Program-made: the position numbers and the translations under genes
The notes under the pieces: generated by a model
Databases searched by the model: none
What the model was told of the DNA's origin: nothing
Seen by the model: the letters and a program-made list of their open reading frames with translations, nothing else
Shown: positions 39,478 to 56,800 of the stretch, in pieces
Layout of the letters: the number at the start of each line of letters is the position of its first letter
Position numbering within the stretch: position 1 is the first letter of the stretch
IMG/VR virus record: IMGVR_UViG_3300032401_000578
Coordinates: 1 to 57,906 of that record
DNA length: 57,906 nucleotides
Reading direction: 5' to 3' (one strand)
Source of the DNA: a virus
Lineage: Duplodnaviria; Caudoviricetes

Positions 39478-39540
39478 CCCGCCATGCGAACGCGACGTGC
39501 GGACGCGGGCCGAAACGGACGACGAAACGGAGCCGGAATC

Positions 39541-39873
39541 ATGACGAACGCAACGACGACGATGGACGAAATCAAGAACTCGCTGATCGAAACAATCGAC
39601 ACGCTGGAGCAGATGCAGGTGAGCTTGCGGTCAATGTTGTGCGACTGCACCTACGTCGTGCAGCTTGAGGGTGGATTCCTCCGCTACTCAAACGGGGTGG
39701 CCTCACTGGCTCGCGTCGGGATGGCGAACAGGTACACGAAGGAATCGGCGAAAGCTGTCGCGGCAACGGTCTCGAACGGCGACAACGTCCAAGGGAGGCC
39801 GGTCAAACTGGTGGACGCTGTGTCGCTGGAAAAAGTGAACGCTCGGCGAATGCTGGCCTCGCTGGACGAGTGA
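39541..39873 (+). CDS. Hypothetical protein
   Basis: Preceded by ACGGACGACGAA and GGAG. Confidence 0.65.
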   Translation: MTNATTTMDEIKNSLIETIDTLEQMQVSLRSMLCDCTYVVQLEGGFLRYSNGVASLARVGMANRYTKESAKAVAATVSNGDNVQGRPVKLVDAVSLEKVNARRMLASLDE

Positions 39874-39943
39874 ACTGGACGGACGCTGGCCGGGTCGCGA
39901 CGTGCGGCCCGGCCCTTCGGTAACAACGAACAAGGGGCGGACG

Positions 39944-40507
39944 ATGACAAACGACGAACTGATGGAAGCGGCGGCGACCGGAGATCAAGCGGCCTTCGGG
40001 ACGCTGGTGGAACGGCACGGCGGGCGGCTGGTCGGGTGGATCTCGGCCCGCGTCGGAAGCGACCCGTCGCTGGACGCTGAGGACGTGGCTCAGGAGGTGT
40101 GGCTGCGTGTGATTCGGGGGGCTGGCGGTTATCAACCGCAGGGGCAATTCGTCGCGTGGCTGTACCGAATGGCTCGAAACATCCTGATGGATTCGGCCAA
40201 GATTCGGCGGCGGTCTGCGTTGGGTCACGTCGAGGCTAACGGCGACGACTGGAGCCAGCTCGACGTGGTGGCTACCGACGACGAGGCGGTAGTGGACGTG
40301 GTGGACCGTCGGGACGTGCTGCGACAGATTGAGGGCGTTCTGGAGTACTTGGACGCGGAGCAGGTCGAGGTCTTGCGTGGAGTCGCGGAAGGGGAGTCGC
40401 TGTCGGAGATCGCGGCCCGGATGGGTGCGTTGCTGCCGACGACGAAGGGGCGGTGGCGGATCGCGAAGGAAAAGATTCGGAGGCGTCTGGTCAAGTGCGA
40501 TGCGTGA
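39944..40507 (+). CDS. ECF-type RNA polymerase sigma factor
   Basis: GDQAAFGTLVERH, DAEDVAQEVW, FVAWLYRMARN, region 4 SLSEIAARMG. Confidence 0.92.
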   Translation: MTNDELMEAAATGDQAAFGTLVERHGGRLVGWISARVGSDPSLDAEDVAQEVWLRVIRGAGGYQPQGQFVAWLYRMARNILMDSAKIRRRSALGHVEANGDDWSQLDVVATDDEAVVDVVDRRDVLRQIEGVLEYLDAEQVEVLRGVAEGESLSEIAARMGALLPTTKGRWRIAKEKIRRRLVKCDA

Positions 40508-40568
40508 CGCTGGCGGCGGTGTGATCCGGGGCGGTGTCGGTGTCGTTTGGACTGCATAAGGAGGCATT

Positions 40569-40727
40569 ATGGACAGCTTGGAGACGAGGCAGGGGCAGTC
40601 TGTTGTGACGCTGCTGCGGACGTGGTTGAGGCGGCACGGGTTGGCGTGGGTTGAGGCCCGGCTGACGGAGGCGAGGGAAAAGGAAATCGACGCTGACGAA
40701 AGGCGGATTCAAAATGGGTGCGAGTGA
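40569..40727 (+). CDS. Small hypothetical protein (52 aa, not in the ORF track)
   Basis: AAGGAGG RBS; MDSLETRQGQSVVTLLRTW... Confidence 0.6.
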   Translation: MDSLETRQGQSVVTLLRTWLRRHGLAWVEARLTEAREKEIDADERRIQNGCE

Positions 40728-41088
40728 TGCAGTTGGAGGGAAGTCGATTCCGGGTCTGGAGAATCCGGGGAAGCGGCTTGAATGGGCGTTCGACTCGCTG
40801 TGTGAGGTGGATGCTTTGCTCGGGGCGATTGTTGCGACGTGGGCGAGGTACACGGCCGCGAACATGAAGCCGGGGGCGGAACGCTGGATCTGCGACAAGA
40901 CGGAGTGGGGGCCGATCTTGCAAGCGGACATCCGGCGGGAATGGAAGGCCCGCGTCAATGCCGATGCGGGGGCGTGGGTGAACTGGCGGAAACAGAAAGA
41001 GGAATACCGGGTCGCGGTGTGCGAGTTCTTCGGGGTCAAGTACGCTTCGCGACGGTCCGAAGGGGGGCTGGATGGCTCGCAAGAATGA
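40714..41088 (+). CDS. Hypothetical protein
   Basis: Overlapping operon packing. Confidence 0.55.
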   Translation: MGASDAVGGKSIPGLENPGKRLEWAFDSLCEVDALLGAIVATWARYTAANMKPGAERWICDKTEWGPILQADIRREWKARVNADAGAWVNWRKQKEEYRVAVCEFFGVKYASRRSEGGLDGSQE

Positions 41089-41476
41089 TCGGCCGGAGAT
41101 CCGGGCGGAGTACAAGCGGGCGAACCCGGAGTGCGAGCTGTCGGGGCTGCTGTGGATGCTCGGGATCGTGCGGGAGTCGCGGACATCCGACACGCTGGAG
41201 ATTCATCACTTGGTCGGCGGGTCGGGCCGACGTGATGCTGTGGCAAATCTGGTGACGGTCAACCGGGTGGTACACAGATGGCTCGAAGCGTACGTCGCCG
41301 ACGGCCGGATTGCGTGCTTGGCGGTCAAGGCGGTCAAGGGCGAGGTGAACCCGGATGAGTTCCGGGAACTGACGGGGCAGTATTTGAGCGGGTGGCTGGC
41401 CTGTCATCCTCCGAAAGACGGACGACTGGAAGCAATTTGGAGGACGCTGTGCAAGGCGTACCCATGCGACGGATGA
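41072..41476 (+). CDS. HNH-like nuclease domain protein
   Basis: CE...LEIHHL.GG..R.D...NLVTV...VH. Confidence 0.6.
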   Translation: MARKNDRPEIRAEYKRANPECELSGLLWMLGIVRESRTSDTLEIHHLVGGSGRRDAVANLVTVNRVVHRWLEAYVADGRIACLAVKAVKGEVNPDEFRELTGQYLSGWLACHPPKDGRLEAIWRTLCKAYPCDG

Positions 41477-41543
41477 CTATTTTCGAGAATCGTAAAAATC
41501 GCGGGCGAATTGTGTTGACTTGCGGGGCCGGGTGGACGATACT
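41476..41543 (+). promoter_or_regulatory. Repeated early promoter cassette, copy 2
   Basis: ACTATT...A-tract; TTGACT(41515)-17 nt-GATACT(41538). Confidence 0.75.
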
Positions 41544-41606
41544 CCTCTTGTCGGACGCGACGTGCGAACGACTGGCCCGAACGGACGACGAACAGGAGCG
41601 ACGAAA

Positions 41607-41933
41607 ATGGCTGTCAATTACACTGTCGAGCTGGATAACAATGGCCGGGTGAAGTCGGTCGAGATCGGCGAACAGAGCGGAAACGGGATCGGCGAACTGA
41701 GTGCGTGGCGGACGGCCAGTGATGGGACGTGCTTCGTCGTGTCGCCGTCTTGCACGTGGGCGATCCGGTCGCTCGGGTGGCTAATCCGGGAGTGCGGAGA
41801 ACACGACAGCGTGGCGGACTTGGTCGAGCTGCTCGGCGAGTCGATGGAGGACGCGGCGGCAACGGCGGCGGAGACAGACGGCTTCGAGCGTGCCGCTGAG
41901 GAACGCGAAGCGATGGCGGTGATCGTGCGGTGA
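41607..41933 (+). CDS. Hypothetical protein
   Basis: ACGGACGACGAA plus AGGAG RBS. Confidence 0.7.
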   Translation: MAVNYTVELDNNGRVKSVEIGEQSGNGIGELSAWRTASDGTCFVVSPSCTWAIRSLGWLIRECGEHDSVADLVELLGESMEDAAATAAETDGFERAAEEREAMAVIVR

Positions 41934-42003
41934 GATGGCGGACGACGCCGGGCTGCAATGTGCGGCCCGGCGGTGTGGTGGATCCAACAAGGAGGGTGGG
42001 ACG

Positions 42004-42195
42004 ATGCTGGTACTTTCAAGAAACATCGAGCAGACAGTGGTGCTGACGGTCGGCGGCGAGACAATCGTGGTCAAGGTCGTGCGGGTGACGCAGGAGGGCC
42101 GAGTCAAGCTAGGATTCGAGGCTGGCCCGGCGGTGACGATCAATCGCGGGGAGATCCAAGACCGGATCGACGCGAAGGAAGGGGGTGAAGCGTGA
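42004..42195 (+). CDS. csrA: Carbon storage regulator CsrA homolog
   Basis: MLVLSR...I.V.V......VKLGFEA...V.I.R.EI; AAGGAGG RBS. Confidence 0.9.
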   Translation: MLVLSRNIEQTVVLTVGGETIVVKVVRVTQEGRVKLGFEAGPAVTINRGEIQDRIDAKEGGEA

Positions 42196-42347
42196 CAGAT
42201 TCTGCAATCGACGTCGCTCTGTTGGTAGTGCTGGTGAGTGGGTGGCTCGTAGCCGTGGTGGCGGTTGGGTGGACGCTGTGGAGCGTGGTGACGATGGGCG
42301 ACGATGACTTCGAGTCCGAAGAAACAAAAGGGGGCGGTGATGGATGA
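42192..42347 (+). CDS. Small single-TM protein (51 aa, not in the ORF track)
   Basis: GTGA coupling to csrA; VALLVVLVSGWLVAVVAVGWTLW then acidic tail. Confidence 0.55.
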   Translation: MTDSAIDVALLVVLVSGWLVAVVAVGWTLWSVVTMGDDDFESEETKGGGDG

Positions 42348-42672
42348 CTTTGATTCGGTCGAGGAAGAGGCTGTTGGGCTGGCGAACTCTTTCGGGATGA
42401 AGCTGGTGCTGAATCCAGACGGGTTCTGGCAGTTGGAACACAACGCGAAAGGGTGGCTGATAAACCTTTCACCTGCGACGTACAGACGCGGCGGGAGGAT
42501 CTGGCACGAGCCGGGGCGAATGGGGCCGAAGCTGGCTGTCCCGCGACGGTGGCTACTGGTCGAGGCGGTGATCGCTGCGGTCAACGCGGAACAGCCGGGG
42601 GCGGTGGAGCCGCTGAGCATCGAGGACGGCGGCGGAGCGATCCGGCGGCCGAATGGGAGACGCGGCGGGTGA
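42340..42672 (+). CDS. Hypothetical protein
   Basis: RBS and operon packing. Confidence 0.55.
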   Translation: MDDFDSVEEEAVGLANSFGMKLVLNPDGFWQLEHNAKGWLINLSPATYRRGGRIWHEPGRMGPKLAVPRRWLLVEAVIAAVNAEQPGAVEPLSIEDGGGAIRRPNGRRGG

Positions 42673-42773
42673 TCGTGATCCGGCGGCGGGTGGACGGCGT
42701 TATGGTGGCGGCCGGGTCGCAATGTGCGGCCCGGCGGAACGGACGGACGGACGGCGAACGAAAGGTGAATATC

Positions 42774-43721
42774 GTGGCGCATGGACTTGATATTGATGCG
42801 GCGGGACGGGGTTCGATGGTCTACGTTGGCAAAACCCCTTGGCACGGGCTTGGGACGCGGTTCGACACTCCGCCAAACTGGGAGGCTGCGTCGGAGGCGT
42901 GCGGGGCCGGATACAAGGTTTTGACGGCGGGCTGCTACACGCAGGACGGCCGGGAGCTTCCGGCGCAGTACACGTACCGGGAGGACACGCAGGACATTTT
43001 CGGCGTCGTCGGTCCGGCCTACACGGTGTTGCAGAACTCGGAGATGTTCCAGTGGTTCTCTCCGCTGATCGACTCCGGGCTGGTGGAGCTTCACACGGCC
43101 GGGGTGTTGTGGGGCGGCAAGAAGGCGTGGTGCTTGGCACGGATCGCGGGCAAGAATCTGGAGGTCCAAGACGGCGACGACGTCGAAAGGTTCGTGTTGC
43201 TGTCGAACGCTCACGATGGGAGCCGGGCGGCACGGGCGGGCTTCACTCCGATTCGGGTGGTGTGTGCGAACACGGAGGCGTTGGCCGTCAATTCAGAAGA
43301 GTCGAATCTGGTGAGGCTGCTTCACACGTCAGGGATCAAGTCGAGCCTGAACGCTTTGCGGGACGTGATGAACACGGCCAACAGCCAATTCGAGGCGACG
43401 GTGGAGCAATACCGACGGCTGGCGAAGACGCCGATCAATCGGCAGGACATCAAGGCCTACGTGCGGCAAGTCCTGAAAATCAAGCCGGACGAGAAGGTTC
43501 ACACGCGGACTGAAAACAAGATGCGGGACATCGTCGCGGCGGCGGTGGACGGCCGGGGGAATCACGGAAAGACGCTGTGGGACGCCTACAACGGGGTCAC
43601 GGAGTGGCTTTCGTACACGTCGTCCAAGACGGACGATAGAAGGGTGGACTCACTCTGGTTCGGCGAAGCGGCGACGCTGTCGAGTCGAGCCTTGGCTATC
43701 GCGGTTGAGATGGCCGGGTGA
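42774..43721 (+). CDS. DUF932-family phage/plasmid protein
   Basis: MAH...PWHGLG, Y..LQN...F, TAG.L.GG...W, LL.N.HDGS, TPIRVVCANT, TLWDAYNGVTE. Confidence 0.9.
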   Translation: MAHGLDIDAAGRGSMVYVGKTPWHGLGTRFDTPPNWEAASEACGAGYKVLTAGCYTQDGRELPAQYTYREDTQDIFGVVGPAYTVLQNSEMFQWFSPLIDSGLVELHTAGVLWGGKKAWCLARIAGKNLEVQDGDDVERFVLLSNAHDGSRAARAGFTPIRVVCANTEALAVNSEESNLVRLLHTSGIKSSLNALRDVMNTANSQFEATVEQYRRLAKTPINRQDIKAYVRQVLKIKPDEKVHTRTENKMRDIVAAAVDGRGNHGKTLWDAYNGVTEWLSYTSSKTDDRRVDSLWFGEAATLSSRALAIAVEMAG

Positions 43722-43757
43722 GTCTGGCTGACGGATCGGCGGGAGGGATCCCGACTG

Positions 43758-43787
43758 AGCCCGGCAAGGGATTGCCGGGCTTTTTCG
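43758..43787 (+). terminator. Intrinsic terminator
   Basis: AGCCCGGCAA-GGGA-TTGCCGGGCT followed by TTTT. Confidence 0.85.
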
Positions 43788-43839
43788 TTGTCGTGATCCG
43801 GGTGCGGCGGCCCGTCGTTTCGGTGGGGGAGGGCAAACT

Positions 43840-44649
43840 ATGTTGAAGCCGCACTTGTCGGTGAGTCAGTTGAACACGCTCGCGAATTGCGGGGAAGCCT
43901 ATCGGCGGTCCTATGTGGAGCGAGAGAAGATTCCGCCAAACTACGCGATGCTCCGGGGCCGTGCGGTACACGGCGGGGCGGAGCTGAACTTTGGCCAGAA
44001 GATCGGTTCGCACTGCGACCTTCCATCCGGGCAAATCGTGGACGCTTCCGTGGCGCAGCTTGAACTGGAGGCGGCGAAAGGTGTCGAGCTGGCGGCGGAG
44101 GATCGCGGCCGGTCCCGGCAGCTGGTACACGGCGAGGCGGTGGACGAGGTGGCGAAGCTGGCTCGGTTGCACGCGACGACGCAGGCCCCGGTCTATCAGC
44201 CGGTCGCGGTGGAGACGGCGATTCGGGTCGTGCTGCCGGATAAGACACACGATCTCGTGTCGGTGCTGGACATGGTGGACGATGCCGGGCGGGTCGTGGA
44301 CTTCAAAACGAAACGGAAGCCGATGACGACCGGCGAAGTCGCGGAGTCGCTCCAGTTCACGGCCTACGCTTTCGCGAGGAAAATCCAGACGGGTGAATAC
44401 CCGGTTGAGCTGGTGATGGAAAACCTGATCAACACGGGGACGACTCAGAAACGTCAACGGATCGCGACGACGCGAGGCGACGAGGACGTGGCTGTTCTGG
44501 CGGCCCGGTTCGATGCGGCCGTCCGGGCGAAGGAAGCCGGGATCTATCAACCGGCGGCGATTGGGGCATGGAATTGTTGCCAAGCCTACTGTGGATATTG
44601 GTCAACCTGTGCCTACGCGGCAGGGAAAAAGGGGGCACAAGGTGACTGA
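43840..44649 (+). CDS. PD-(D/E)XK exonuclease (RecB/Cas4-like)
   Basis: HLSVSQL...C, G.AVH, E...LD.....VVDFKT, Q...YA, C....CGY...C. Confidence 0.85.
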   Translation: MLKPHLSVSQLNTLANCGEAYRRSYVEREKIPPNYAMLRGRAVHGGAELNFGQKIGSHCDLPSGQIVDASVAQLELEAAKGVELAAEDRGRSRQLVHGEAVDEVAKLARLHATTQAPVYQPVAVETAIRVVLPDKTHDLVSVLDMVDDAGRVVDFKTKRKPMTTGEVAESLQFTAYAFARKIQTGEYPVELVMENLINTGTTQKRQRIATTRGDEDVAVLAARFDAAVRAKEAGIYQPAAIGAWNCCQAYCGYWSTCAYAAGKKGAQGD

Positions 44650-44983
44650 GACGAAAACGGAAAAGGCGGTCGATCAATCGGCGGAGGCGATCCGGGGCCG
44701 AGTGGCTTTCGCGATCCGTGACGGCGGGGACAAGGTCGCGCTGCAAATCGTCTACACGGGGGCGGACGGCGTGACGAAGCGGCGGTGCGTGTCTCCGACG
44801 GCGTCCTTCGGGTTCGGCCGTGACGAGGGCTTCAAGGCGTTGTGTCTCGGTGACGGGAAGCCGAAACGGTTCTATCTGTCCGGGGTGAGCGAGGCGGTTC
44901 AGGTGCTGGCGTCGGACATGCTGATTCCGATGCCGGTGGAGGTCGTGCGAAAGGGGGGCTTCAATGTCGCTGACGTGGGATGA
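44642..44983 (+). CDS. Stand-alone WYL-domain protein
   Basis: I.Y....G....R.VSP......ALC.....KRFYL pattern. Confidence 0.7.
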   Translation: MTETKTEKAVDQSAEAIRGRVAFAIRDGGDKVALQIVYTGADGVTKRRCVSPTASFGFGRDEGFKALCLGDGKPKRFYLSGVSEAVQVLASDMLIPMPVEVVRKGGFNVADVG

Positions 44984-45578
44984 GATTCGGGCACGGAACA
45001 CGGGGCGGCGTACAGAGGAGGACGTGGCGGCGTTGCTGTCGGACGCTTTGGGGGCTGGCCCGGACTGGATGATAGTGTACCGGGATTGGCTCGGCCGGTG
45101 GGATCTACCGCTGAACCTCGCACCGGCAAACGTGATGGCGTTCTTGCGGGATTCGATTGAGCCGACGGTCGCAGACCCGGAGGCAGCGGCGATACTGGCG
45201 ACGATGCGGCGTCTGTGCAGCGTGCGGCCTCGTTCCGGAGTCGGGCTGACGGCGGTGGAGTCGCTCGGAGAAATCCGGCAGACGATTCGGGAGTACGGGC
45301 TGCGTCGTGCGGACGAGATGCGGCACAAGCCGGGGGGCGAGGTGACGCGGACGATTGAGACGGCGGCGGACATGGTGGAGCGGCTGTGCAGTATCGTCGC
45401 GAAGATGGCGGCGGCGATACCCGGCGCAGAGTGTGACTGTTTCTGTGGCCGCTGCCGGAAATCGCGATCCGCTACGCCGGTCGCGTCGTTTCGTCACAGA
45501 TACCGTGTGACTCCGGTGCTGTTGGAGCTGCTGGACGACTTCGTCAATTCATTGGGCGTGGAAACAAGAGGGGGCTGA
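44964..45578 (+). CDS. Hypothetical protein
   Basis: Operon packing; CDCFCGRC. Confidence 0.55.
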   Translation: MSLTWDEIRARNTGRRTEEDVAALLSDALGAGPDWMIVYRDWLGRWDLPLNLAPANVMAFLRDSIEPTVADPEAAAILATMRRLCSVRPRSGVGLTAVESLGEIRQTIREYGLRRADEMRHKPGGEVTRTIETAADMVERLCSIVAKMAAAIPGAECDCFCGRCRKSRSATPVASFRHRYRVTPVLLELLDDFVNSLGVETRGG

Positions 45579-45579
45579 C

Positions 45580-46716
45580 ATGAGCGGGAATGAGGTCGCG
45601 AAAGTGGAGAAGGCGGGGTTCACGGTGAACTACGTGCCGTTCGGGGAGCGTGAGGCGATTACGCTGACAATCGACCGGGTCCGGCAGTTCCTTTGCACGC
45701 CGACGAGGAGCGGGCAGTTGCCATCAGACGCCGACGTGGTGCGGTACTGCATGCTCTGCAAGGCCCAAGGACTGAACCCGTGGGTGAACGACGCATACTG
45801 CGTCGGCTACGACACGCAGGACGGGGCGAAGTTCAATCTGATCACGTCACACCAAGCGTTCCTGAAACGGGCGGAGGCGTCTCCGCAGTACGACGGGATG
45901 CGGTCTGGCGTGGTCGTGCAGGTCGGTGACGGCGAGCCGATCAAGCGGGAGGGGGATCTTGTCTACAAGGGCGAGATCCTGATCGGTGGCTGGGCGGAGG
46001 TCTTTCGCAAAGATCGACTGGTCCCGTCGTCGGATGCGTTGTCGCTGGCGGTGTTCTCAACCGGGCGGAGTCGCTGGAAGGACGACCCGGCCGGGCAAAT
46101 CTGCAAATGTGCGGAGGCGTCGGCGGTACGCAAAGCGTACCCGTCGTGCCTGTCCGGGCTGCGGTGTCGCGAGGAAATGGACGCGGTACACGAGGCCACA
46201 GTCGCGGCCAAGCGGGCAACCGTGGTCGCGGAGTCCGGGTTCGGGGCCGGGGCGTCAGTGGTCGAGGTTGAGCGGCCGGGGTCGCTGCCGGATCGGAGGT
46301 CGTGTCTGCCGACACACCTGCGACAAGACTCCAGTGATACCCGGCCGCTCGCGGACTATCTCGTGGCGAAGATTGCGACCGGGACGGCGACGGACCGGGT
46401 GGCTATTGCGGAGGCTTTGCCCGGTCTTGGGATCGGAGCGGACGGGATGATGGCCGTGATCGCGTCGCTATCTGGTCGGGACGCGGACATCCCGGAGCGT
46501 GAGGAGGAGCGGGCGGAGCCGGTCCCGACTGAACCGGTCCGTCCGGAGGCGGTGCGGCAAGTGCTAGATGCGATCCGGAGAGCGAGGTCAGTAATGTCGC
46601 TGGAGCTGGTAATGACTCGGTGGGACGTCAACGGTGCAGCGGAGTTCGAGGACTTTGCGGAGATCATTGAAGCGGCGGTTCTGGCGAGGACTGCACGCTT
46701 GAACGGGGGTGAGTGA
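45580..46716 (+). CDS. bet: Single-strand annealing recombinase (Bet/RecT family)
   Basis: CKAQGLNPW...Y, GGWAEV.RKD, W...P...I.KCAE..A.RKAYP. Confidence 0.88.
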   Translation: MSGNEVAKVEKAGFTVNYVPFGEREAITLTIDRVRQFLCTPTRSGQLPSDADVVRYCMLCKAQGLNPWVNDAYCVGYDTQDGAKFNLITSHQAFLKRAEASPQYDGMRSGVVVQVGDGEPIKREGDLVYKGEILIGGWAEVFRKDRLVPSSDALSLAVFSTGRSRWKDDPAGQICKCAEASAVRKAYPSCLSGLRCREEMDAVHEATVAAKRATVVAESGFGAGASVVEVERPGSLPDRRSCLPTHLRQDSSDTRPLADYLVAKIATGTATDRVAIAEALPGLGIGADGMMAVIASLSGRDADIPEREEERAEPVPTEPVRPEAVRQVLDAIRRARSVMSLELVMTRWDVNGAAEFEDFAEIIEAAVLARTARLNGGE

Positions 46717-49010: not shown

Positions 49011-49025
49011 GGTGAGGGGCGTCGG

Positions 49026-49505: not shown

Positions 49506-49544
49506 GTGTGAGGCGGCGGGTTAAGGTGTGGCACGGAGGCCGAG

Positions 49545-49799
49545 ATGCTTGGACAACGCGAACGGATCTACGACGTCTACCTTGCGACCCCGACGGGTCC
49601 GGAGGTCCGCAGGGTAATCGCGGCCTCCGAAGGACTCGGGGTCCGGGCGGCTGAGGCGATGGTGCAGGGATCGCTGGCACTGCATTACACGGTCCAAGTG
49701 GATGTCGTCGGGACGTGCAAGCGGTGCGGCCAACTGGTCGAGGCGTCGGAGCTGTTCCGCGAAGTCGTCTCCGGCGTCCTTTGCCGAGAGTGCAAGTGA
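49545..49799 (+). CDS. Small Zn-finger protein
   Basis: GGAGG RBS; CKRCG...CREC. Confidence 0.55.
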   Translation: MLGQRERIYDVYLATPTGPEVRRVIAASEGLGVRAAEAMVQGSLALHYTVQVDVVGTCKRCGQLVEASELFREVVSGVLCRECK

Positions 49800-50068
49800 T
49801 GTCTGATCCGATCACGGTTCGACGGCTGCACAAGGCTCTAAGGGTCGCAAAGCGAGTGCCGGGCGTGATCTTGTTCGACTTACGCGGCGGCCCGTTCGAC
49901 GGCTGCCCGATGCCTTGCCGGGTCGAGTACGCGGCCCGCTTGGTGTTGTCGGGCTACGATCTGTTCCTTCCGGTTGACGAAGCGGAACAGACGTTCGCGT
50001 GCTACCTAGCCACGAAGCCGGAGGGCGACTGGATCGGCGTTTTCGCTGGGTACGGCCGTCGCGAATAA
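49799..50068 (+). CDS. Hypothetical protein
   Basis: TGATG coupling; GGPFDG motif. Confidence 0.55.
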   Translation: MSDPITVRRLHKALRVAKRVPGVILFDLRGGPFDGCPMPCRVEYAARLVLSGYDLFLPVDEAEQTFACYLATKPEGDWIGVFAGYGRRE

Positions 50069-50165
50069 TTCGGGCGGGTTCCGTGATCCGATTCGCGCCG
50101 CCGTCGTTATGTTTCTGGATCGGTCGTAGACCGTGAAAAAAACACGAAACGGAAGGGGTGCGGCG

Positions 50166-51701
50166 ATGGCGAAGATGAAAACGGCCAAGGCGGCGGAGCC
50201 GGTCGAGGCAACGGACGAGTTAAAGATTGAGATTGAAAACATCGGCCCGGTCGAGCGGGCTTCAATCCCTTTGCGGCCCGGTCACGTCACTGTGCTGACG
50301 GGGTCGAATGGGGCGGGAAAGTCGGAGACGTTGGCGGCTGTCACGGCGTTGGCCGTCGGCGGCACGTCGCTGGAGGCCCGTGACGGCACTGAGGGCGGGT
50401 CGGTCTCTGGGTTGGGGATTACGATCAAGGTCGGACGCAAGGGGCAGAACCGGCGGACTGGAGAGCTGGAGGTGCTGGCGGTGGAGGACGGGTTCGACTT
50501 GTCCAAGTTCGTCGATCCGGGATTGAAGGACCCGGTGGCGGCCGACAAGCAACGGATCAAGACGCTGGCGACGCTGCTCGGGGTCAAGGTGACGGTCGAG
50601 TCGGTGAAGGCCCTGATCGGCACTTCCGATCTCTACGACGCGAACGTGACGGACAAGACGGCGAAGCTGGCGGCGGTGTCGGCGGTGGACTTCGTGAACG
50701 GCGCCAAGCGTGACTTGGAGTTCGGGGCACGCGAGATAGAAGCGGAGGCGGCACGGGCGGAGCAAGACGCGGCGACGCTCGAAGGGACGCTGGCCGGGGT
50801 CGATCTGACGGCGGAGAGTGACGGCGACGTTCTGACGAAGCGGTGGACGGAGGCGTCTCAGAACTCCGCTCGGCTGCGGGAACAGGGGCGGCTGGCGGTC
50901 GAGGCGGCACGGATCGCGGAGGAGGCCAAGCTGCTGATCGATTCGGTCGAGGTCGTGTCTGTGGACGACTGGGCCGACGAACTCGACTTGCTCAAGAAAT
51001 CTTATGACGAAGCGGTGAAACGTCGCGGGAAGGCGGAAGAGGAGCTTCGGGCGGCATCGGCGGCGGAAGCGGTCGAGTTGCGGGATTGTGAGCAGTCCGC
51101 ACTTCGGCTGTCGTCGGCGAAAGCGGTGGCGGCCCGGCGTGATGCGGCGAAGGCCAAGCTGGTCCCGTCGGTCGTTCATCCGACAGAGGCGGAACTGGAC
51201 GCGGCCTCGGTGGCGGAGATCGCGGCGGAGACGGCTGTCATCGCTGGGGCAAAGATCCGCGATGGAAAAGCGACGATGGAGCGGGCGACGAGGGCGAGAA
51301 TCAAGGCGTCGTCGCTGGGTTGCGACGCGGTCGTGATCCGGGACGCGGCGGCAAAGGTGGCCGGGCTGCTGGCCGGTCCGATCAACGCCGTCGGGTGCGG
51401 CGTCCGGGTGTCGAAGGAAGGGCGTCTGGTCGTGGACGGTCACAAGCGGGGCGAGTGTTTCGCGTCCGATCTGAGCCCCGGAGAGATGTGGACAGTGGCG
51501 TTGCGATTGGCGGCAACAGTGTTCAAGGCGGCTGGCGTCCCGGCGTTGCTGGCCGTCCCGCAGGAGTGCTACGAGGCCCTTGACGGGCACAACCTGCGGG
51601 TCTTCACGGAGGCGGTCCGTGAGTCCGGTCTGATGGTTGTCACGGCAAAGGCGTCGGCTGAGGACGTGGACTACGTGCCGGTGACGGCGACGGTGCTTTG
51701 A
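50166..51701 (+). CDS. SMC/SbcC-like ABC ATPase with coiled coil
   Basis: IENIGP, Walker A GSNGAGKS, long coil, signature LSPGE, degenerate Walker B AVPQE. Confidence 0.8.
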   Translation: MAKMKTAKAAEPVEATDELKIEIENIGPVERASIPLRPGHVTVLTGSNGAGKSETLAAVTALAVGGTSLEARDGTEGGSVSGLGITIKVGRKGQNRRTGELEVLAVEDGFDLSKFVDPGLKDPVAADKQRIKTLATLLGVKVTVESVKALIGTSDLYDANVTDKTAKLAAVSAVDFVNGAKRDLEFGAREIEAEAARAEQDAATLEGTLAGVDLTAESDGDVLTKRWTEASQNSARLREQGRLAVEAARIAEEAKLLIDSVEVVSVDDWADELDLLKKSYDEAVKRRGKAEEELRAASAAEAVELRDCEQSALRLSSAKAVAARRDAAKAKLVPSVVHPTEAELDAASVAEIAAETAVIAGAKIRDGKATMERATRARIKASSLGCDAVVIRDAAAKVAGLLAGPINAVGCGVRVSKEGRLVVDGHKRGECFASDLSPGEMWTVALRLAATVFKAAGVPALLAVPQECYEALDGHNLRVFTEAVRESGLMVVTAKASAEDVDYVPVTATVL

Positions 51702-51735
51702 GGTGTCGGTGCGACGAAACTGAAAGGGTGAGAAC

Positions 51736-52038
51736 ATGGCGGTCAAGAGGTCGATGGTTGAGCTGATGCGGGCGTTGGTGGACGCGGCGAGGGTGTCGGA
51801 GGTCACGGAGGCGTTGCTGGCGGAATGCGAGTCGCGGCTCCGGGCACAGAAGAAACAGGTCACGAAGGCCGCGAAGGCGTCGGCTCGGTCCGGGAACTCT
51901 GGACGGCCGGGGATGCCGGAGGAGACGCGGCAGGCGATCTTGGCGCATCCGGGGAGCAACTACGAGACGGCGGACGCCTTCGGGGTCCACTACGAAACGG
52001 TCCGGAGATTACGAAAGGCCGTTCGTGACAAAGCGTGA
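51736..52038 (+). CDS. HTH DNA-binding protein
   Basis: SNYETADAFGVHYETVRRLR. Confidence 0.75.
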   Translation: MAVKRSMVELMRALVDAARVSEVTEALLAECESRLRAQKKQVTKAAKASARSGNSGRPGMPEETRQAILAHPGSNYETADAFGVHYETVRRLRKAVRDKA

Positions 52039-52198
52039 ATACTTCGACCGGCTGATGGCGGAGCCGGTCTGGTGGCTCGAAAAGAACGCAGAGCGGCCGT
52101 CGGTCGGGATGACGAGGATTCACGTTCTGTTGTCCCGGCTGGCGGTGCGAAAGAAACTATTTCCACAATTCCGAAAAAACGCTGGCGAATTGCGTTGA
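52025..52198 (+). CDS. Small hypothetical protein (57 aa, not in the ORF track)
   Basis: GTG start after AAAGG; MTKREYFDRLMAEPVWWLEK...; stop lies inside the -35 box of the next promoter. Confidence 0.45.
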   Translation: MTKREYFDRLMAEPVWWLEKNAERPSVGMTRIHVLLSRLAVRKKLFPQFRKNAGELR

Positions 52199-52223
52199 CA
52201 ATCGGGACGGCGGAGACGATACT
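52156..52223 (+). promoter_or_regulatory. Repeated early promoter cassette, copy 3
   Basis: ACTATT...ATTCCGAAAAAA; TTGACA(52195)-17 nt-GATACT(52218). Confidence 0.8.
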
Positions 52224-52286
52224 ACACGCAACGCGGTTGACGTGACTGCGAATCCCGGACGGACGACGAACTGAGGAGCTGAGACA

Positions 52287-52439
52287 ATGGTTAAAACACT
52301 TGCGGAAGCGGTTGTGGTTGCGATGAGAACCTTCGCAGCGGAACCTTCGGCTATCGAGGTCGAGATCGCGATGGTCTTCGGTTCGGTTTGGATCGGCCGG
52401 GACGGGGAAATCTACGACCGGCCACGGTTCGCCAACTGA
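52287..52439 (+). CDS. Small hypothetical protein (50 aa, not in the ORF track)
   Basis: ACGGACGACGAA plus GAGGAG RBS; MVKTLAEAVVVAMRTF... Confidence 0.65.
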   Translation: MVKTLAEAVVVAMRTFAAEPSAIEVEIAMVFGSVWIGRDGEIYDRPRFAN

Positions 52440-52472
52440 GGCGGACGGTTCGCCAACTGAGGCGGACGGTTC
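52424..52472. repeat. 21-bp tandem repeat x2.3
   Basis: ACGGTTCGCCAACTGAGGCGG twice, then ACGGTTC. Confidence 0.9.
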
Positions 52473-52532
52473 AAACTGCCCGGTTCGCAACGTGCGGACC
52501 GGGCGATTCCTGCGGACGACGAAAGGGACGAT

Positions 52533-52793
52533 ATGACGACCATGACGAAATCGCCGACAGCTTCTCAAGTGGGTGAACGCATCGGTGGGGAAGTGACAAA
52601 GCGGGCGGGCGTCTTCACTTACCGACGCGGGTTCTTTTACCGGAACGGGGTCACGTCGCAAGATGTTGTCGATATGGTCAAGGCCGCTTACCCGGAGGCT
52701 GTTGTGGTCGATTCTGGGGAGGTCTGGAGGTCGTTCAACGGCGGGGCGTCAACTGCCAAGAGTTCTCACTGGTGGGTCACGTTCACGCTGTGA
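52533..52793 (+). CDS. Hypothetical protein
   Basis: CGGACGACGAAAGGGA leader. Confidence 0.7.
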   Translation: MTTMTKSPTASQVGERIGGEVTKRAGVFTYRRGFFYRNGVTSQDVVDMVKAAYPEAVVVDSGEVWRSFNGGASTAKSSHWWVTFTL

Positions 52794-52830
52794 GCGGGCT
52801 CTGTTTCTAACGGACGACGAAAGGGACGAC

Positions 52831-53055
52831 ATGACGATTCAAACGGTGACGGCGAAGAACACGACGGAAGCAGGCGGCTACCGATTCTTGACGGAAGCTT
52901 CGACAATCGGCTGCCCGCCCGGTTGCGTTCCGGAGAAGCTGGCGACGACGCTCGGGAACGGGCAGCCTTTGACGCGGGTGGAAATCGACGAGGACGGGAC
53001 GGCACACTATCGCCAAGATCTCGGGTGCGTGCGGCTTATTCTGATCAACGACTGA
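52831..53055 (+). CDS. Hypothetical protein
   Basis: ACGGACGACGAAAGGGA leader. Confidence 0.7.
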   Translation: MTIQTVTAKNTTEAGGYRFLTEASTIGCPPGCVPEKLATTLGNGQPLTRVEIDEDGTAHYRQDLGCVRLILIND

Positions 53056-53078
53056 CGGACGACGAAAGGGGACTTGCG

Positions 53079-53372
53079 ATGATGACTTCAACGGGCTTTC
53101 AGATGGCGGTGGCGATGACGATGGACCGGATGACGGAGTCCGAACGCCAAGCGGTACGTGAGGCAATCCGGGGCGGGTCGCGGCCGACAGAGCTTTGCCG
53201 CTACCGGGAAGGCGGACCGTTGGTCTTGCGGTGCGAGGTGCCGGAAACGTGGCGGCATCTGGAGGTCTTCCAGGTCGCTCGGGATCTCAACTGCACGATT
53301 CCGGCGGACAAGGAAGCGGCGACGATTGCGTGGTTCAAAGCGAGATCTGTTGAGCCGGTTCCGTCGTTGTGA
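53079..53372 (+). CDS. Hypothetical protein
   Basis: ACGGACGACGAAAGGGG leader. Confidence 0.65.
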   Translation: MMTSTGFQMAVAMTMDRMTESERQAVREAIRGGSRPTELCRYREGGPLVLRCEVPETWRHLEVFQVARDLNCTIPADKEAATIAWFKARSVEPVPSL

Positions 53373-53418
53373 CGGCCGGTGGGGTGGACGTGCGAAGCTT
53401 CAAACGAAAGGGTGCGGA

Positions 53419-53535
53419 ATGTCGATTCAACTGCCGACGGTACACTTGAACGGGACGAGCAAGGCGGAGCTGCTGGACACGCTGGGCGAGGCGTCGGAAG
53501 CCTTGGACGCGGCCTACCGGGCGTTGTGCCGTTGA
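53419..53535 (+). pseudogene. Probably truncated small gene (MSIQLPTVHLNGTS...)
   Basis: 38 aa; its stop codon is part of the TTGACA -35 box of the next gene's promoter. Confidence 0.4.
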
Positions 53536-53559
53536 CATGGCGTCGGAGCGAATGATAAT
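53532..53559 (+). promoter_or_regulatory. Sigma70-like promoter of the endonuclease-like gene
   Basis: TTGACA-16 nt-GATAAT. Confidence 0.65.
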
Positions 53560-53598
53560 AAACAGACGTGCGGACCACTTAGAAAAAGGGGGAATGCT

Positions 53599-54138
53599 AT
53601 GTCTGTGAAATGCCGATGGTGTGAAGCGGAGGCTACCCGTCAACGCGGACGGACGCCGGTATGCCGGATTCACTTCCGGTTCGTGACAATGCGGGAATCG
53701 TGCGTTCGGAGGGGGACGGAGGTCCCCACGATGGAGCGACTCGAAGCGATTGCAAAAAAGAGTGGGACGACATGCCCAATATGCAAACGCGAAATGAATT
53801 GGACACGGGCGGAGGGGGCCGACACTGTGTTGACGTTGCAGCACGACCGCGATGGGGAAATGACGTTTCTGTGCATGTCGTGCAACAGCCGACACTTCGC
53901 TTACAGCGGCGATGAGTTCTATGTGGTTGGGCCGGATCTGAAAAGATGCTCTGTTTGTAAGACCGTCAAGACGTTGGATGAGTTCGGAAACGACAAATCT
54001 GGAAGATGGGCCGGGAAAACGTGCAGATGCAAAGTGTGTGTTGGGGTTCTTCACAAAAAATGGCAGGAGGAAAATCGTGACAAGTACAACGCCTACATGC
54101 GGGAATACAAGCGGCGGCGACGGGCGGAGGCCCGGTGA
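53599..54138 (+). CDS. Zn-binding His-Me (HNH/EndoVII-like) free-standing endonuclease candidate
   Basis: CPIC...TLQHD......LCMSCN..H plus KRCSVCK..K...EF...CKVC; visibly more AT-rich than its flanks. Confidence 0.65.
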   Translation: MSVKCRWCEAEATRQRGRTPVCRIHFRFVTMRESCVRRGTEVPTMERLEAIAKKSGTTCPICKREMNWTRAEGADTVLTLQHDRDGEMTFLCMSCNSRHFAYSGDEFYVVGPDLKRCSVCKTVKTLDEFGNDKSGRWAGKTCRCKVCVGVLHKKWQEENRDKYNAYMREYKRRRRAEAR

Positions 54139-54348
54139 CGACCCGACGAAGGTCTACTGGACGGCCCGCATCGGAGTGGATCGTCTGTGGGTGATCGACG
54201 GCTATTGTTTGGAGTCGCACGGGCTGACACGGGTGTTGTCGGAGGACGCCAGCTTCTCGCGTTCCGGTGAGATCGTGGCGGAGATCGAAGCGGGGCCGGA
54301 CCGTGCGGAATGCCTTGAGATCGCGGCCGAAGCGTGCGAGGGGGATCT

Positions 54349-54579
54349 ATGAGCGACGAAGCGAGGGAACGGTTGAGACTTCTCGAAGACGATCACGAGC
54401 CGGATGGCTGGCCGGCTGTGAGGATGGGGGACGTCTCGGCAGTACTGGACATGTTGGCTGCGGTGGAGAGCGAAAATCAATGCCTTCGCACAGTGGTGAA
54501 AGACTGCTTGAGCCAGTTGATCCGAACGTCCGAAACCAAGAAAAAGAAACGGCGGAAGCCGGGAAAGTCGAGACGATGA
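54349..54579 (+). CDS. Hypothetical protein
   Basis: GAGGGGG RBS. Confidence 0.6.
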   Translation: MSDEARERLRLLEDDHEPDGWPAVRMGDVSAVLDMLAAVESENQCLRTVVKDCLSQLIRTSETKKKKRRKPGKSRR

Positions 54580-54908
54580 ACGAGAACGCAAAATTACCGC
54601 TGAACGTGCATCACTTCGTCCGCGATGGCATGGACAGGACTGACACCGGGCTGCTGGAGATCGAAGAACTGAACGAGATGGTCAACGACGCTCTGGCGAA
54701 CGGAGATCGCGGGACGGCCGAGAAGATCGCGACGGAGGCGGCGGCGATGATGTCGCTGGCACCGGAGGCGTGGGCGGTGCTGGAGCGAATAGAGCTTGTC
54801 CGGCGTGGGTTCGGCGAGTTCTCCGGCACGGAACTCTTCGAGGTCGTGAACGATCTGTTGAAGCGGCGGGACACGGCGGCTGGTGGGTCCGTAAAGCTAT
54901 TCCGCTGA
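54576..54908 (+). CDS. Hypothetical protein
   Basis: ATGA coupling. Confidence 0.6.
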   Translation: MNENAKLPLNVHHFVRDGMDRTDTGLLEIEELNEMVNDALANGDRGTAEKIATEAAAMMSLAPEAWAVLERIELVRRGFGEFSGTELFEVVNDLLKRRDTAAGGSVKLFR

Positions 54909-54963
54909 TTCCAAAAAAAACGGACGAGTTGAGATTGACGAACGGACGCCGAGAGCCGATACT
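54896..54963 (+). promoter_or_regulatory. Repeated early promoter cassette, copy 4
   Basis: CTATT...ATTCCAAAAAAAA; TTGACG(54935)-17 nt-GATACT(54958). Confidence 0.8.
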
Positions 54964-55026
54964 CCCTACATCGCAACCGGACGCCGGTTGCAACGAACCC
55001 CAAACGGACGACGAAAGGGCTGAACG

Positions 55027-55452
55027 ATGATTGCAATCGGAACTAAGATTCTGGCGAATGACGGCTACTCGAAACGACTCGGCGAAGTCGTCAATCACGA
55101 GACGAACAGGTGGGGCGACTGGCACGTCGTAGCGGTCGGTGACGGCCGGGAGATGGTCGGGACGATTGACGGCCCGGACGCCAAAGGGATCGGCTGGAAG
55201 GTCGCGACGGAGGCCGAGATCGCGAGGGCGGCCCGGTACGCTGCGGCGGAAGAGGCGGAGCAGAGCCCGAAAACATTCCGGAACGCCAACTTCGACGGAA
55301 AGCGGAACTACAACTGCACGAACATTGTCGCCTGCCAAGGCGGGGCGGCTCCGGATGGCGTGTGGGTGGAGTGCGGCCCGGAGATCATCGCGGAGATGAA
55401 GCTGAGCCCGCTGTGGATTCAAGGTGGGGTCCGGTTCTTCGGATGGTTGTGA
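55027..55452 (+). CDS. Hypothetical protein
   Basis: ACGGACGACGAAAGGG leader. Confidence 0.7.
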   Translation: MIAIGTKILANDGYSKRLGEVVNHETNRWGDWHVVAVGDGREMVGTIDGPDAKGIGWKVATEAEIARAARYAAAEEAEQSPKTFRNANFDGKRNYNCTNIVACQGGAAPDGVWVECGPEIIAEMKLSPLWIQGGVRFFGWL

Positions 55453-55523
55453 GTGACTGACTCTAGCCCGGCTCCAATGTGGGGCCGAGCATCTTGGACG
55501 GACGACGAACAGGAGACGATGCG

Positions 55524-55874
55524 ATGACGACAACAAGCGAGATCAAACCGGCTGACATCATCCTACGACAGCTCGGCGGGAGCCGTCGGCTGACGGTGAT
55601 GATCGGAGCCTACGACTTCTACTCCGACAACGGAGGCCGGACGCTGCGGTTCCGGTTCAAGGGCTGCCCGGTGGCGAATCTGTGCAAGGTGACGCTTGAG
55701 GCGTCGGACACGTACACGGTGAAGCTGGAGAAACTCGGCCGGATGTCGCGGAAGACCTACACGATTCCGGTGACGGTCGCTGCGGAGTTCGGCGACGTCT
55801 ACGCGGAGAATCTCCGGGACGTGATCGAACGGGCGACAGGGCTCTACCTGTCGATGGGCACGATGGGTCGGTGA
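55524..55874 (+). CDS. Phage hypothetical protein (IL.QLGG...MIGA type)
   Basis: ACGGACGACGAA plus AGGAG; DTY.V, DVY.E.L...IE..TGL. Confidence 0.75.
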   Translation: MTTTSEIKPADIILRQLGGSRRLTVMIGAYDFYSDNGGRTLRFRFKGCPVANLCKVTLEASDTYTVKLEKLGRMSRKTYTIPVTVAAEFGDVYAENLRDVIERATGLYLSMGTMGR

Positions 55875-55948
55875 ACGGGTGGCGGCTGGCTGGGGCCGAT
55901 GTGGTCCCGGCCCGGTGTGGCGGTTCCGAAACGAAAAAGGGGCGAGCG

Positions 55949-56155
55949 ATGACTGACCGAGATGCAATCGAAGCGAACGTGCGAAACAAAATCAAAGACC
56001 TGAAAACGGCGAAAGTGACGGCGATGTCGGTGGACAATCTTCGCCAGATCACGAGGACGGTTGGGGTGTTCTGTGCGGTCGCGGCCTACCCGGCGATGTT
56101 CCGGGAGGTGGCAATTGACGCCGGGAAAGCCCTTGGGTTCAGCGTGACGGATTGA
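55949..56155 (+). CDS. Hypothetical protein
   Basis: AAGGGG RBS. Confidence 0.6.
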   Translation: MTDRDAIEANVRNKIKDLKTAKVTAMSVDNLRQITRTVGVFCAVAAYPAMFREVAIDAGKALGFSVTD

Positions 56156-56164
56156 GTCGAAAGA

Positions 56165-56232
56165 ACTATTCCCAACAATCCGAAAAAAACGTGCGGGTTG
56201 ATGTGGACAAACGAACGCGGGGAGACGATACT
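56165..56232 (+). promoter_or_regulatory. Repeated early promoter cassette, copy 5
   Basis: ACTATT...ATCCGAAAAAAA; TGGACA(56204)-17 nt-GATACT(56227). Confidence 0.75.
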
Positions 56233-56292
56233 CCCTACACGCAACCAACGCGGCTGCGACAAACCGAACGGACGACGAACGGAGGCTTGATC

Positions 56293-56547
56293 ATGATGAC
56301 ACGGCGCAACGAATACAAACTGTCGGCCGCCCTTCCTCTTGTGGCTAAGCACGGCTTCACGGTGGTCTCGGTCGGGATGGACTACGCGACCTGCTCCGGC
56401 AAGGTGGTTGACGACCGGTTGGTGTCGCTTCATCAGGACTGGACCCCCAAGGGGGCGGAGTTCGTCCGGGTCCAACTGACGCGGGGCAAGTGGGCCGGGC
56501 AAAACATCGGGTCGATTCACAAGACCGGGTTCGACTGGCGGAAATGA
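56293..56547 (+). CDS. Hypothetical protein
   Basis: ACGGACGACGAA plus GGAGG. Confidence 0.7.
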   Translation: MMTRRNEYKLSAALPLVAKHGFTVVSVGMDYATCSGKVVDDRLVSLHQDWTPKGAEFVRVQLTRGKWAGQNIGSIHKTGFDWRK

Positions 56548-56596
56548 GCCGGGCGGCGGTGGCGAACAATCTTCAACGGACGACGAAAGGGATCAC

Positions 56597-56773: not shown

Positions 56774-56800
56774 AACTCTTCAACCGAAAGGACGACTGCG

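Follow-up and report, generated by a model that had tools for sequence, protein, structure and literature searches.

Start-associated sequences (SAS) have been known in mycobacteriophages since 2011, and a paper from 2025 still called for functional tests, describing their function as requiring experimental verification (PMC3203893, PMC12699233). Another type of mobile leader, the PeSL cassette, was described in the T4-type phages RB49 and phi1 (Arbiol et al. 2010, PMC2839356). A csrA gene has been catalogued in 30 of 2517 phage genomes, and loss-of-function tests of these have been called for, in passages that name no target (PMC7366521); our search of the literature on phage CsrA found no target assignment. 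Here, we describe a leader cassette in an uncultured phage present in sediment samples (Duplodnaviria; Caudoviricetes; IMG/VR record IMGVR_UViG_3300032401_000578), analyzed over the whole record of 57,906 nt (hereafter the window). Its core is a 12-mer, ACGGACGACGAA, that lies just upstream of the Shine-Dalgarno sequence (SD) of eleven small accessory genes, in most cases downstream of a hairpin, in a phage that also carries an intact csrA gene. Judging from its anatomy, the cassette probably operates at the mRNA level, as a start-associated control or initiation module, and the translation of the eleven genes is probably controlled jointly by one factor, perhaps the phage's own CsrA. The cassette is a new sequence family within the known start-associated sequences and mobile early-gene cassettes.

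ACGGACGACGAA is the most repeated 12-mer in the phage genome. It occurs in nine exact copies, all on the + strand and none on the − strand, whereas 100 dinucleotide shuffles averaged 0.05 copies and never gave more than 1; the same sequence written backwards gives 0 forward and 0 reverse matches in the whole virus record. Two further start-linked copies carry one mismatch (GCGG... at 52512 and ...GGCGAA at 42747), while two other one-mismatch copies, at 14901 (+ strand, within a gene) and 21569 (− strand), fit chance. When up to two mismatches are allowed, 30 matches are found versus 18.1 ± 4.0 expected, an excess that roughly equals the eleven start-linked copies. These eleven all lie in non-coding spacers of the non-structural region (39.5–56.6 kb), and each leaves 9–16 nt to the start codon that it precedes, an ATG in 10/11 cases. 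An initial annotation of this DNA, made from the sequence alone, had reported the nine exact + strand copies, the two variants at 52512 and 42747, and their intergenic position just before an SD and a start codon; the count over the whole genome and both strands bears out all of this, and the motif is not equally frequent on the minus strand or in coding DNA. The copies are:

39515..39526, + strand, exact 12-mer, 14 nt before the ATG at 39541 of gene 47 (110 aa), in an operon with the extracytoplasmic function (ECF) sigma gene
41581..41592, + strand, exact 12-mer, 14 nt before the ATG at 41607 of gene 52, directly upstream of csrA
42747..42758, + strand, variant 12-mer ACGGACGGCGAA, 15 nt before the GTG at 42774 of the DUF932 gene, preceded by tandem ACGG repeats
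52259..52270, + strand, exact 12-mer, before the ATG at 52287 of gene 70 (50 aa)
52512..52523, + strand, variant 12-mer GCGGACGACGAA, before the ATG at 52533 of gene 71 (absent from the relative G001, see below)
52810..52821, + strand, exact 12-mer, before the ATG at 52831 of gene 72
53055..53066, + strand, exact 12-mer, before the ATG at 53079 of gene 73
55004..55015, + strand, exact 12-mer, before the ATG at 55027 of gene 78
55498..55509, + strand, exact 12-mer, before the ATG at 55524 of gene 79
56268..56279, + strand, exact 12-mer, before the ATG at 56293 of gene 81
56576..56587, + strand, exact 12-mer, before the ATG at 56597 of gene 82

The first A of the copy at 53055 is also the final base of the gene 72 stop codon. 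At 42736–42758, before the DUF932 gene, tandem ACGG units (GGAACGGACGGACGGACGGCGAA) result in four GGA within 20 nt, with no GGA in the SD. The eleven proteins encoded downstream range from 50 to 315 aa and show no mutual similarity (BLASTP all-against-all, E 1e-3, no pairs), and the repeats therefore do not derive from gene duplication.

The second part of the cassette, absent from the initial annotation, is a GC-rich hairpin, located 6–12 nt upstream of the 12-mer in 8/11 copies. Scanning both strands for stems of at least 5 bp around a loop R-A-Y-G-Y (R, purine; Y, pyrimidine) gave 12 hairpins on the + strand versus one on the − strand, with a mean of 3.7 in mononucleotide shuffles. For each of the eight with stems of 7–12 bp, a start codon follows at 28–39 nt, taken as the difference between the start coordinate and the hairpin end. 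Together with three imperfect leader hairpins, these eight are:

39484..39508, + strand, imperfect leader hairpin with a 2x2 internal loop, loop GACGU, upstream of the gene 47 12-mer
39888..39914, + strand, hairpin with an 11-bp stem, loop GACGU, sigma gene start 30 nt past its end, no 12-mer
41549..41573, + strand, imperfect leader hairpin, loop GACGU, upstream of the gene 52 12-mer
41946..41972, + strand, hairpin with an 11-bp stem, loop AAUGU, csrA start 32 nt past its end, no 12-mer
42711..42735, + strand, hairpin with a 10-bp stem, loop AAUGU, 11 nt before the variant 12-mer at 42747
52232..52250, + strand, 7-bp hairpin, loop GACGU, 8 nt before the 12-mer at 52259
52477..52505, + strand, 12-bp hairpin, loop AACGU, 6 nt before the variant 12-mer at 52512
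54973..54991, + strand, 7-bp hairpin, loop GACGC, 12 nt before the 12-mer at 55004
55469..55487, + strand, 7-bp hairpin, loop AAUGU, 10 nt before the 12-mer at 55498
55888..55912, + strand, 10-bp hairpin, loop GAUGU, before gene 80, no 12-mer
56237..56261, + strand, leader hairpin with one mismatch (perfect in G001), loop AACGC, upstream of the gene 81 12-mer

We aligned 17 hairpins from the window and from G001, the sole close relative in the collections, a 24-kb fragment with a 91% identical terminase in which the csrA region lies outside the fragment. All eight stem pairs vary on both sides, with a covariation score of 0.77 compared with 0.20 after shuffling. The alignment cells pair in 85% of cases versus 52% in shuffles and 27–42% when the partner is slid, a percentage that is inflated, since a pairing filter selected 13 of the 17 rows and the alignment includes several orthologues. 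The A and the G of the loop are invariant in 17/17 rows while the stem sequences differ, and RNAalifold recovers this helix, in which an R-Y pair closes the A-Y-G triloop. Several stem columns contain G.U pairs, which would be A.C mismatches on the opposite strand, so the pairing is meaningful on this strand only. Rfam 15 gave no matches at E up to 1 in 38000–57906, and a tRNA scan was empty. The hairpin occurs without a 12-mer before three genes (the sigma gene 48, csrA and gene 80) and the 12-mer without a hairpin before three others (72, 73 and 82), which implies that the two parts can act apart.

A full cassette thus runs in the order optional sigma-70-like promoter, covarying A-Y-G hairpin, 6–12 nt, 12-mer, 0–4 nt, SD, 4–8 nt, ATG. 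Scanning 38–57.9 kb with a sigma-70-like consensus gave seven sites versus 2.3 ± 1.4 expected. Four of these (pattern TTGAC.-17-GATACT) end 35–40 nt before a 12-mer; a fifth promoter-like site, before gene 47, was seen by eye. The four promoters, and a terminator downstream of one of them, are:

41515..41543, + strand, sigma-70-like promoter TTGACT-17-GATACT, 37 nt before a 12-mer
52195..52223, + strand, sigma-70-like promoter TTGACA-17-GATACT, 35 nt before a 12-mer
54935..54963, + strand, sigma-70-like promoter TTGACG-17-GATACT, 40 nt before a 12-mer
56204..56232, + strand, sigma-70-like promoter TGGACA-17-GATACT, 35 nt before a 12-mer
43757..43782, + strand, terminator-like hairpin with a T run, closing the operon of gene 52, csrA, genes 54 and 55, and the DUF932 gene

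A promoter-like site is present in 5/11 cassettes and a hairpin in 8/11, leaving six copies without such a promoter. The minimal cassette, a 23-nt spacer between genes 72 and 73, consists of the 12-mer and SD only. The 12-mer is tied to the translation start and SD, not to the promoter. The strongest sigma-70-like promoter of the region (TTGACA-16-GATAAT, 11/12; 53532–53559) lies elsewhere, before the endonuclease-VII-like gene 75; next comes AGACGTGCGGAC, similar to the hairpin loop and 3′ arm but without the 5′ arm.

In G001, the cassette precedes mostly different genes. The fragment has five exact and two one-mismatch copies of the 12-mer (7 forward, 0 reverse), located before the SDs of small genes, and 6/7 of them have the hairpin. 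Only two of the seven G001 motif genes are orthologues of motif genes in the window, while the other five have no counterpart there. Blocks of homology between the window and G001 end at cassettes in at least four places: gene 71 is absent from G001, with the joint at the 12-mer; genes 78–80 are absent as well and lie between two cassettes; and a G001 cassette that shares 95% identity with the gene 81 cassette stands before another gene. Recombination at cassettes that shuffles genes between close relatives, the behavior described for PeSL, is therefore seen here. Because the cassettes are long near-repeats, they can serve as recombination joints, and in the mechanism proposed below they would double as such for accessory-gene swapping.

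This mechanism, which we put forward tentatively where it names phage CsrA as the reader, starts from ACGGACGACGAA as the core of a start-associated leader cassette that would act in mRNA. The hairpin would fold the upstream RNA away from the ribosome-binding site, leaving the U-free 12-mer mostly single-stranded directly 5′ of that site. The 3′ half (ACGAA), which recurs before other genes of this phage, belongs to its generic ribosome-site context; only ACGGAC(G) is specific to the cassette, and this 5′ half, A-C-GGA-C-G, is the predicted protein-binding site. Phage CsrA would be produced from the second early operon, and its dimer would hold both the GGA of the 12-mer and the GGA of the SD 11–14 nt downstream, thereby blocking 30S binding. 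As a result, the eleven cassette-bearing small accessory genes would be shut off as one group, while genes without the 12-mer (the sigma factor, csrA and the recombination genes) would stay translated. A stronger version has the phage CsrA controlling a private regulon, in which an ACGGAC box one dimer-span upstream of the SD of eleven swappable early genes times the post-transcriptional shut-off of these accessory or host-takeover genes, and box and hairpin travel as a plug-in cassette; we hold this to be possible, if rather doubtful. The candidate reader is:

42004..42195, + strand, csrA homologue, 63 aa, Pfam PF02599, phrog_9500

The protein, already recognized in the initial annotation, matches PF02599 at E 1.9e-11 (44.2 bits versus a cut-off of 27; 44.4 bits in a six-frame search). 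Members of this family bind GGA RNA as strand-swapped homodimers. In a phmmer alignment to Escherichia coli CsrA (1y00_A), the equivalents of L2, L4, R6, R44 and I47 are kept, with INRGEI against VHREEI around R44; L4 and R44 are critical CsrA residues, and GGA is the core of its site (PMC7652899). In the window and G001 together, this GGA is invariant in 18/18 copies of the 12-mer, and the four one-mismatch variants differ at positions 1, 6, 8 and 12 only. A second GGA lies in or at the SD, 11–14 nt downstream (start to start), in 9/11 copies. Folding of the leaders predicts a probability of being unpaired of at least 0.65 for the 12-mer and of 0.60–0.73 for its GGA in 9/11 leaders, the sole local stem being 2 bp (CG/CG). 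The two-site CsrA operator suggested in the initial annotation is thus borne out in part: the invariant GGA, the second GGA in most copies and the intact csrA agree with it, the sequence before the GGA does not, and the presentation and the spacing of the sites fit it less clearly.

Several points weigh against CsrA as the reader, and some against an RNA-level reading in general. In SELEX (systematic ligand evolution by exponential enrichment), ACA before the GGA was 100% conserved and most ligands presented GGA in a hexaloop closed by AC/GU, while the CsrA dimer bridges two sites 10–63 nt apart with an optimum above 18 nt (PMC7652899). In the phage 12-mer, the A at −2 is the single match; a C instead of a purine occupies −1, and −3 is taken by a, g or t in 11/11 copies, with c in none. 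No short hairpin with AC/GU closing pairs presenting the GGA was found in the eleven folded leaders, and the 11–14 nt GGA-GGA spacing is at the lower edge of the bridging range. The copies at 42747 and 55004 (2/11) have no second GGA before the start. Where it is present, the second site is not independent evidence, since phage SDs contain GGA anyway. CsrA contacts account for about 7 nt rather than 12 exact nt; in our reading, the remainder of the 12-mer is explained by a generic ACGAA context. The hairpin loop contains no GGA, so CsrA leaves the hairpin unexplained. In the protein itself, R7 of E. coli CsrA is replaced by N. G403, a distant phage of 52% GC whose RecT is 62% identical, encodes a CsrA (33.9 bits), but its partial 26 kb contain neither the 12-mer at up to one mismatch nor another repeated start motif. 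For the RNA level, the row selection and orthologues that inflate the pairing percentage of the hairpin count on the same side, and because every called gene lies on the + strand, strand bias by itself cannot separate an RNA from a DNA function and leaves a DNA role possible. The csrA leader (41973–42003) follows the hairpin at 41946, has no 12-mer, and contains three GGA (GGAUCC, AAGGAGGG and UGGGACG) within 25 nt of the start, making self-regulation of csrA conceivable.

An unlikely alternative is that the cassette is a constitutive translation-initiation module with no dedicated regulator. Here, the hairpin would insulate the leader and the U-free, purine-rich 12-mer would serve as a standby or enhancer platform, its GAA extending the pairing with the 16S tail, such that any accessory gene newly taken up would be translated well regardless of its sequence; the copies would be identical because a single successful cassette has spread by recombination. 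Of the 73 genes without a 12-mer, 12, with structural genes among them, have ACGAA no more than 28 nt from the start, in most cases fused to the SD (background, 4.6% of 24-nt windows), and ACGAAAG is the most enriched intergenic 7-mer (10 seen versus 0.6 expected). In copies reading AAAGGG, the GAA of the 12-mer can extend the pairing (GAAAGGG) with the CCUUUC tail of three Planctomycetota 16S rRNAs, a comparison that is purely illustrative. The predicted unpaired state of the 12-mer and the position of cassettes at mosaic joints before unrelated genes, as for PeSL (PMC2839356), also agree with such a module, and the SAS authors likewise propose a role in translation initiation (PMC3203893). 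However, an unstructured platform needs no 12 exact bases, and as the flanks of the 12-mer vary freely, gene conversion alone would have to halt at its edges. Within the three 16S rRNAs, no conserved complement of the 12-mer was found: the 5′ half, ACGGAC, has a match in one of the three, in a variable region, and the fractions of shuffled 12-mers that do as well are 0.01, 0.30 and 0.85. Structural and replication genes, moreover, do without the 12-mer.

Within 9 nt 5′ of the 12-mer there is often a pyrimidine tract (UUCCU, UCUU, CCC) that could pair with the SD. An anti-SD tract making the 12-mer a loop was considered and is not relied on: the effect is weak (−4.3 versus −2.7 kcal/mol for control genes; Mann-Whitney p 0.016, 0.029), the comparison with random intergenic 9-mers gives p 0.042, and cognate pairs are no better than non-cognate ones (p 0.48).

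We regard it as quite unlikely that joint control is exerted by a reader other than the phage CsrA, which could be a host CsrA, an unrecognised phage RNA-binding protein among the many small unannotated ORFs, an endoribonuclease that processes polycistronic early RNAs, or a host small RNA, and which would recognize the triloop of the hairpin, the 12-mer, or the two together. Hairpins bound by proteins usually have a conserved loop on a free stem, as the 17 aligned rows do, and the loop without GGA, the ACG-type triplets in both the hairpin loop (A-Y-G) and the 12-mer (ACG x3), and the existence of hairpin-only and 12-mer-only genes all agree with such a reader. Twelve exact bases would suit RNA-RNA pairing, and most early-region proteins have no family match in Pfam/PHROG-type profile searches, leaving room for an unrecognised protein. 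Against this, there is no candidate protein that stands out, the + strand of the phage contains no antisense partner of the 12-mer beyond one coding-region match with a mismatch, and the hairpin has no Rfam match. Gene 45 (38838–39128, 96 aa) encodes an arginine-rich stretch, KTRRRRRD, as in RNA-binding antiterminators, and its product is a possible alternative candidate reader of the hairpin.

It is very improbable that the cassette acts at the DNA level, whether as a signal or homology patch for recombination, as the operator of a DNA-binding protein, or as part of promoters for the ECF sigma factor: the breaks of homology at cassettes, a public-run contig whose end coincides with the final base of a 12-mer (52270), as is usual for repeats in assemblies, the RecT, exonuclease and RusA genes with which the phage could exchange gene cassettes, its ECF sigma gene, and the preference of the ESAS (extended SAS) authors for DNA-binding proteins (PMC3203893) speak for it, but the 12-mer is fixed to the SD and start (9–16 nt) rather than to a −35/−10 geometry, the bases upstream of it vary (a GAAC-like −35 in 2/11 by eye), the distance from the hairpin GTGCGG to the 12-mer varies between 11 and 20 nt, the G.U pairs of the stem are meaningful in one strand only, and 12 nt are by themselves too short for RecT-type recombination, the joints being better explained by the cassettes of about 100 nt. 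The tight link to the start codon, the variable upstream distances and the strand-specific pairing thus weaken all DNA-level readings; reading hairpin and 12-mer together as an ECF promoter was rejected, as their spacings are not constant (by eye).

The wider distribution of the motif is narrow. Among 20 terminase relatives (38–51% identity), csrA occurs in 0/20 and the 12-mer is at chance level, and a k-mer survey of seven fetched terminase relatives gave no strand-specific start-linked 12-mer. Both features are therefore confined to this lineage, which is compatible with a link between csrA and the 12-mer without demonstrating one. A CsrA 79% identical to that of the phage (P0002) is encoded elsewhere, on a 59.7-kb contig. 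Viral contigs queried with gene 67, CsrA, P0002, RecT and DUF932 returned only G001 and G403, and scanning viral contigs with a 16-mer gave 91 stretches, with more than one copy in G001 only. Scanning metagenomes for promoter plus 12-mer gave 19 loci, of which one, L194, is real and comes from the phage itself, the other 18 being chance. Cultured phages gave no matches in megablast or tblastn searches, and a terminase search of genome contigs gave two distant ones. Contigs assembled from four public DNA runs are low-depth pieces of the same phage, with no informative variants and no joints at cassettes.

The 12-mer was also counted in 401 genomes of Planctomycetota, a phylum guessed from the ECF sigma factor. 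One genome, G146, has 36 + 25 = 61 copies, but all of the 30 copies inspected belong to a single dispersed palindromic repeat of about 230 nt, which neither an SD nor a start follows, and G146 has no similarity to the phage; this lead was rejected as unrelated. The repeat (L160–L189, e.g. L163:1440-1740) resembles a miniature inverted-repeat transposable element (MITE) or a repetitive extragenic palindromic (REP) sequence and is often found at contig ends. Five other Planctomycetota genomes with 5–12 copies have these scattered, with no prophage cluster. Two distant terminase relatives of about 42% GC, G406 and G408 (L222–L227), carry CGCCAGGAG in 20+20 and 18+18 copies on the two strands, mostly intragenic, and G406 also carries the palindrome CGTATATACG 22 times; all of these resemble repeats at the DNA level rather than signals for starts.

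The genome that hosts the cassettes is nearly complete, with an estimated completeness of 94%. Its first 142 nt (1–142) recur at 57765–57906 with 141/142 identical positions, and the metagenome contig L194 reads across the record end into the record start, which together indicate a closed (circular) or terminally redundant genome; the record itself is classed as linear without end repeats. A heuristic gene call gives 84 genes, all on the + strand, leaving 6203/57906 nt non-coding. The first 38 kb encode methyltransferase, PAPS-reductase-like and ParB-like genes, followed by terminase, portal, head and tail genes, while 38–57.9 kb contain regulatory and recombination genes and many small unannotated genes. 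Labeling the motif genes as early is inferred from their location in this non-structural region and from the sigma-70-like promoters near copies of the 12-mer. The terminase large subunit (4125–6452) has 776 aa, against about 450 positions in the matching stretch of the PHROG profile, and may contain an insertion or intein-like segment. One regulatory gene provides context, outside the cassette:

39944..40507, + strand, ECF-type sigma factor gene (gene 48), PF04542 and PF07638

It is the second gene of the first early operon, after gene 47. No promoter motif was found for this sigma factor, and its nearest protein-atlas cluster, mostly Planctomycetota, is the sole hint of a host.

Among described systems, the cassette is closest to the cluster K mycobacteriophage SAS and the PeSL cassettes. 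The alternative raised in the initial annotation, a start-associated sequence as in actinophages, matches the anatomy at least as well as a CsrA operator does. Like the 12-mer, the SAS is a short asymmetric repeat (13 bp there, 12 here; 11–19 copies there, 11 here) that occurs in nearly all cases in one orientation, in the non-structural half of the genome, right before the starts of genes of different families, with a similar preference for ATG (80/93 for SAS, 10/11 here) and a second, upstream inverted-repeat element at about half of the copies (PMC3203893). The two differ in that the SAS, GGGATAGGAGCCC, includes the SD core and lies 3–7 bp from the start, whereas the phage 12-mer stands beside a separate SD at 9–16 nt and does not match the SAS consensus GGGATAGGAGCCC at up to two mismatches, making it an analogue rather than a member. 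The ESAS arms, moreover, show no RNA pairing and were read as DNA sites, while the phage stems covary and use G.U pairs (PMC3203893). There is no sequence similarity between the two, the host group is another one, and the passages on SAS mention no CsrA.

The PeSL cassettes are repeated units in which a sigma-70-like promoter and a stem-loop containing G-T pairs are joined to an SD and a start codon, and they precede small ORFans in plastic regions, where cassette recombination leads to gene gain, loss and replacement (PMC2839356); of these parts, a promoter-like site accompanies 5/11 and a stem-loop 8/11 copies of the 12-mer. Their stem-loops lie in or upstream of the promoter and are described as terminators or attenuators, and no fixed linear motif such as the 12-mer accompanies their SD (PMC2839356). 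The phage hairpin, in contrast, is part of the leader, downstream of the −10; it has no U run and is also present where there is no promoter.

With the CsrA/RsmE operators of E. coli glgC and Pseudomonas fluorescens hcnA, the cassette shares a GGA at the SD, in 9/11 copies, plus an upstream GGA, which is unpaired in those operators and predicted to be mostly so in 9/11 leaders here, and the phage encodes nearby a homologue of the small dimeric regulator with L4 and R44; it departs from them in having no ACA, no presenting hairpin and a spacing of 11–14 nt rather than an optimum above 18 (PMC7652899). The regulator would, in addition, be phage-encoded and have a private regulon. A start-associated motif and csrA in one genome offer a testable pair, consisting of a 63-aa protein and an RNA of about 45 nt. 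Should the CsrA pairing fail, the cassette would still be a natural, insulated ribosome-binding-site module that moves between genes. If it is true, the phage could add or swap accessory genes while keeping one post-transcriptional switch, which would account for CsrA genes on mobile elements. In phage T4, RegA is a single phage protein that binds the initiation regions of many early mRNAs and shuts off their translation, and the circuit proposed here is similar; RegA has no relation to CsrA and binds at AU-rich, poorly conserved sites. The cassette would thereby represent a RegA-like circuit built from the CsrA fold, and would provide the first mechanism for start-associated sequences, unexplained since 2011.

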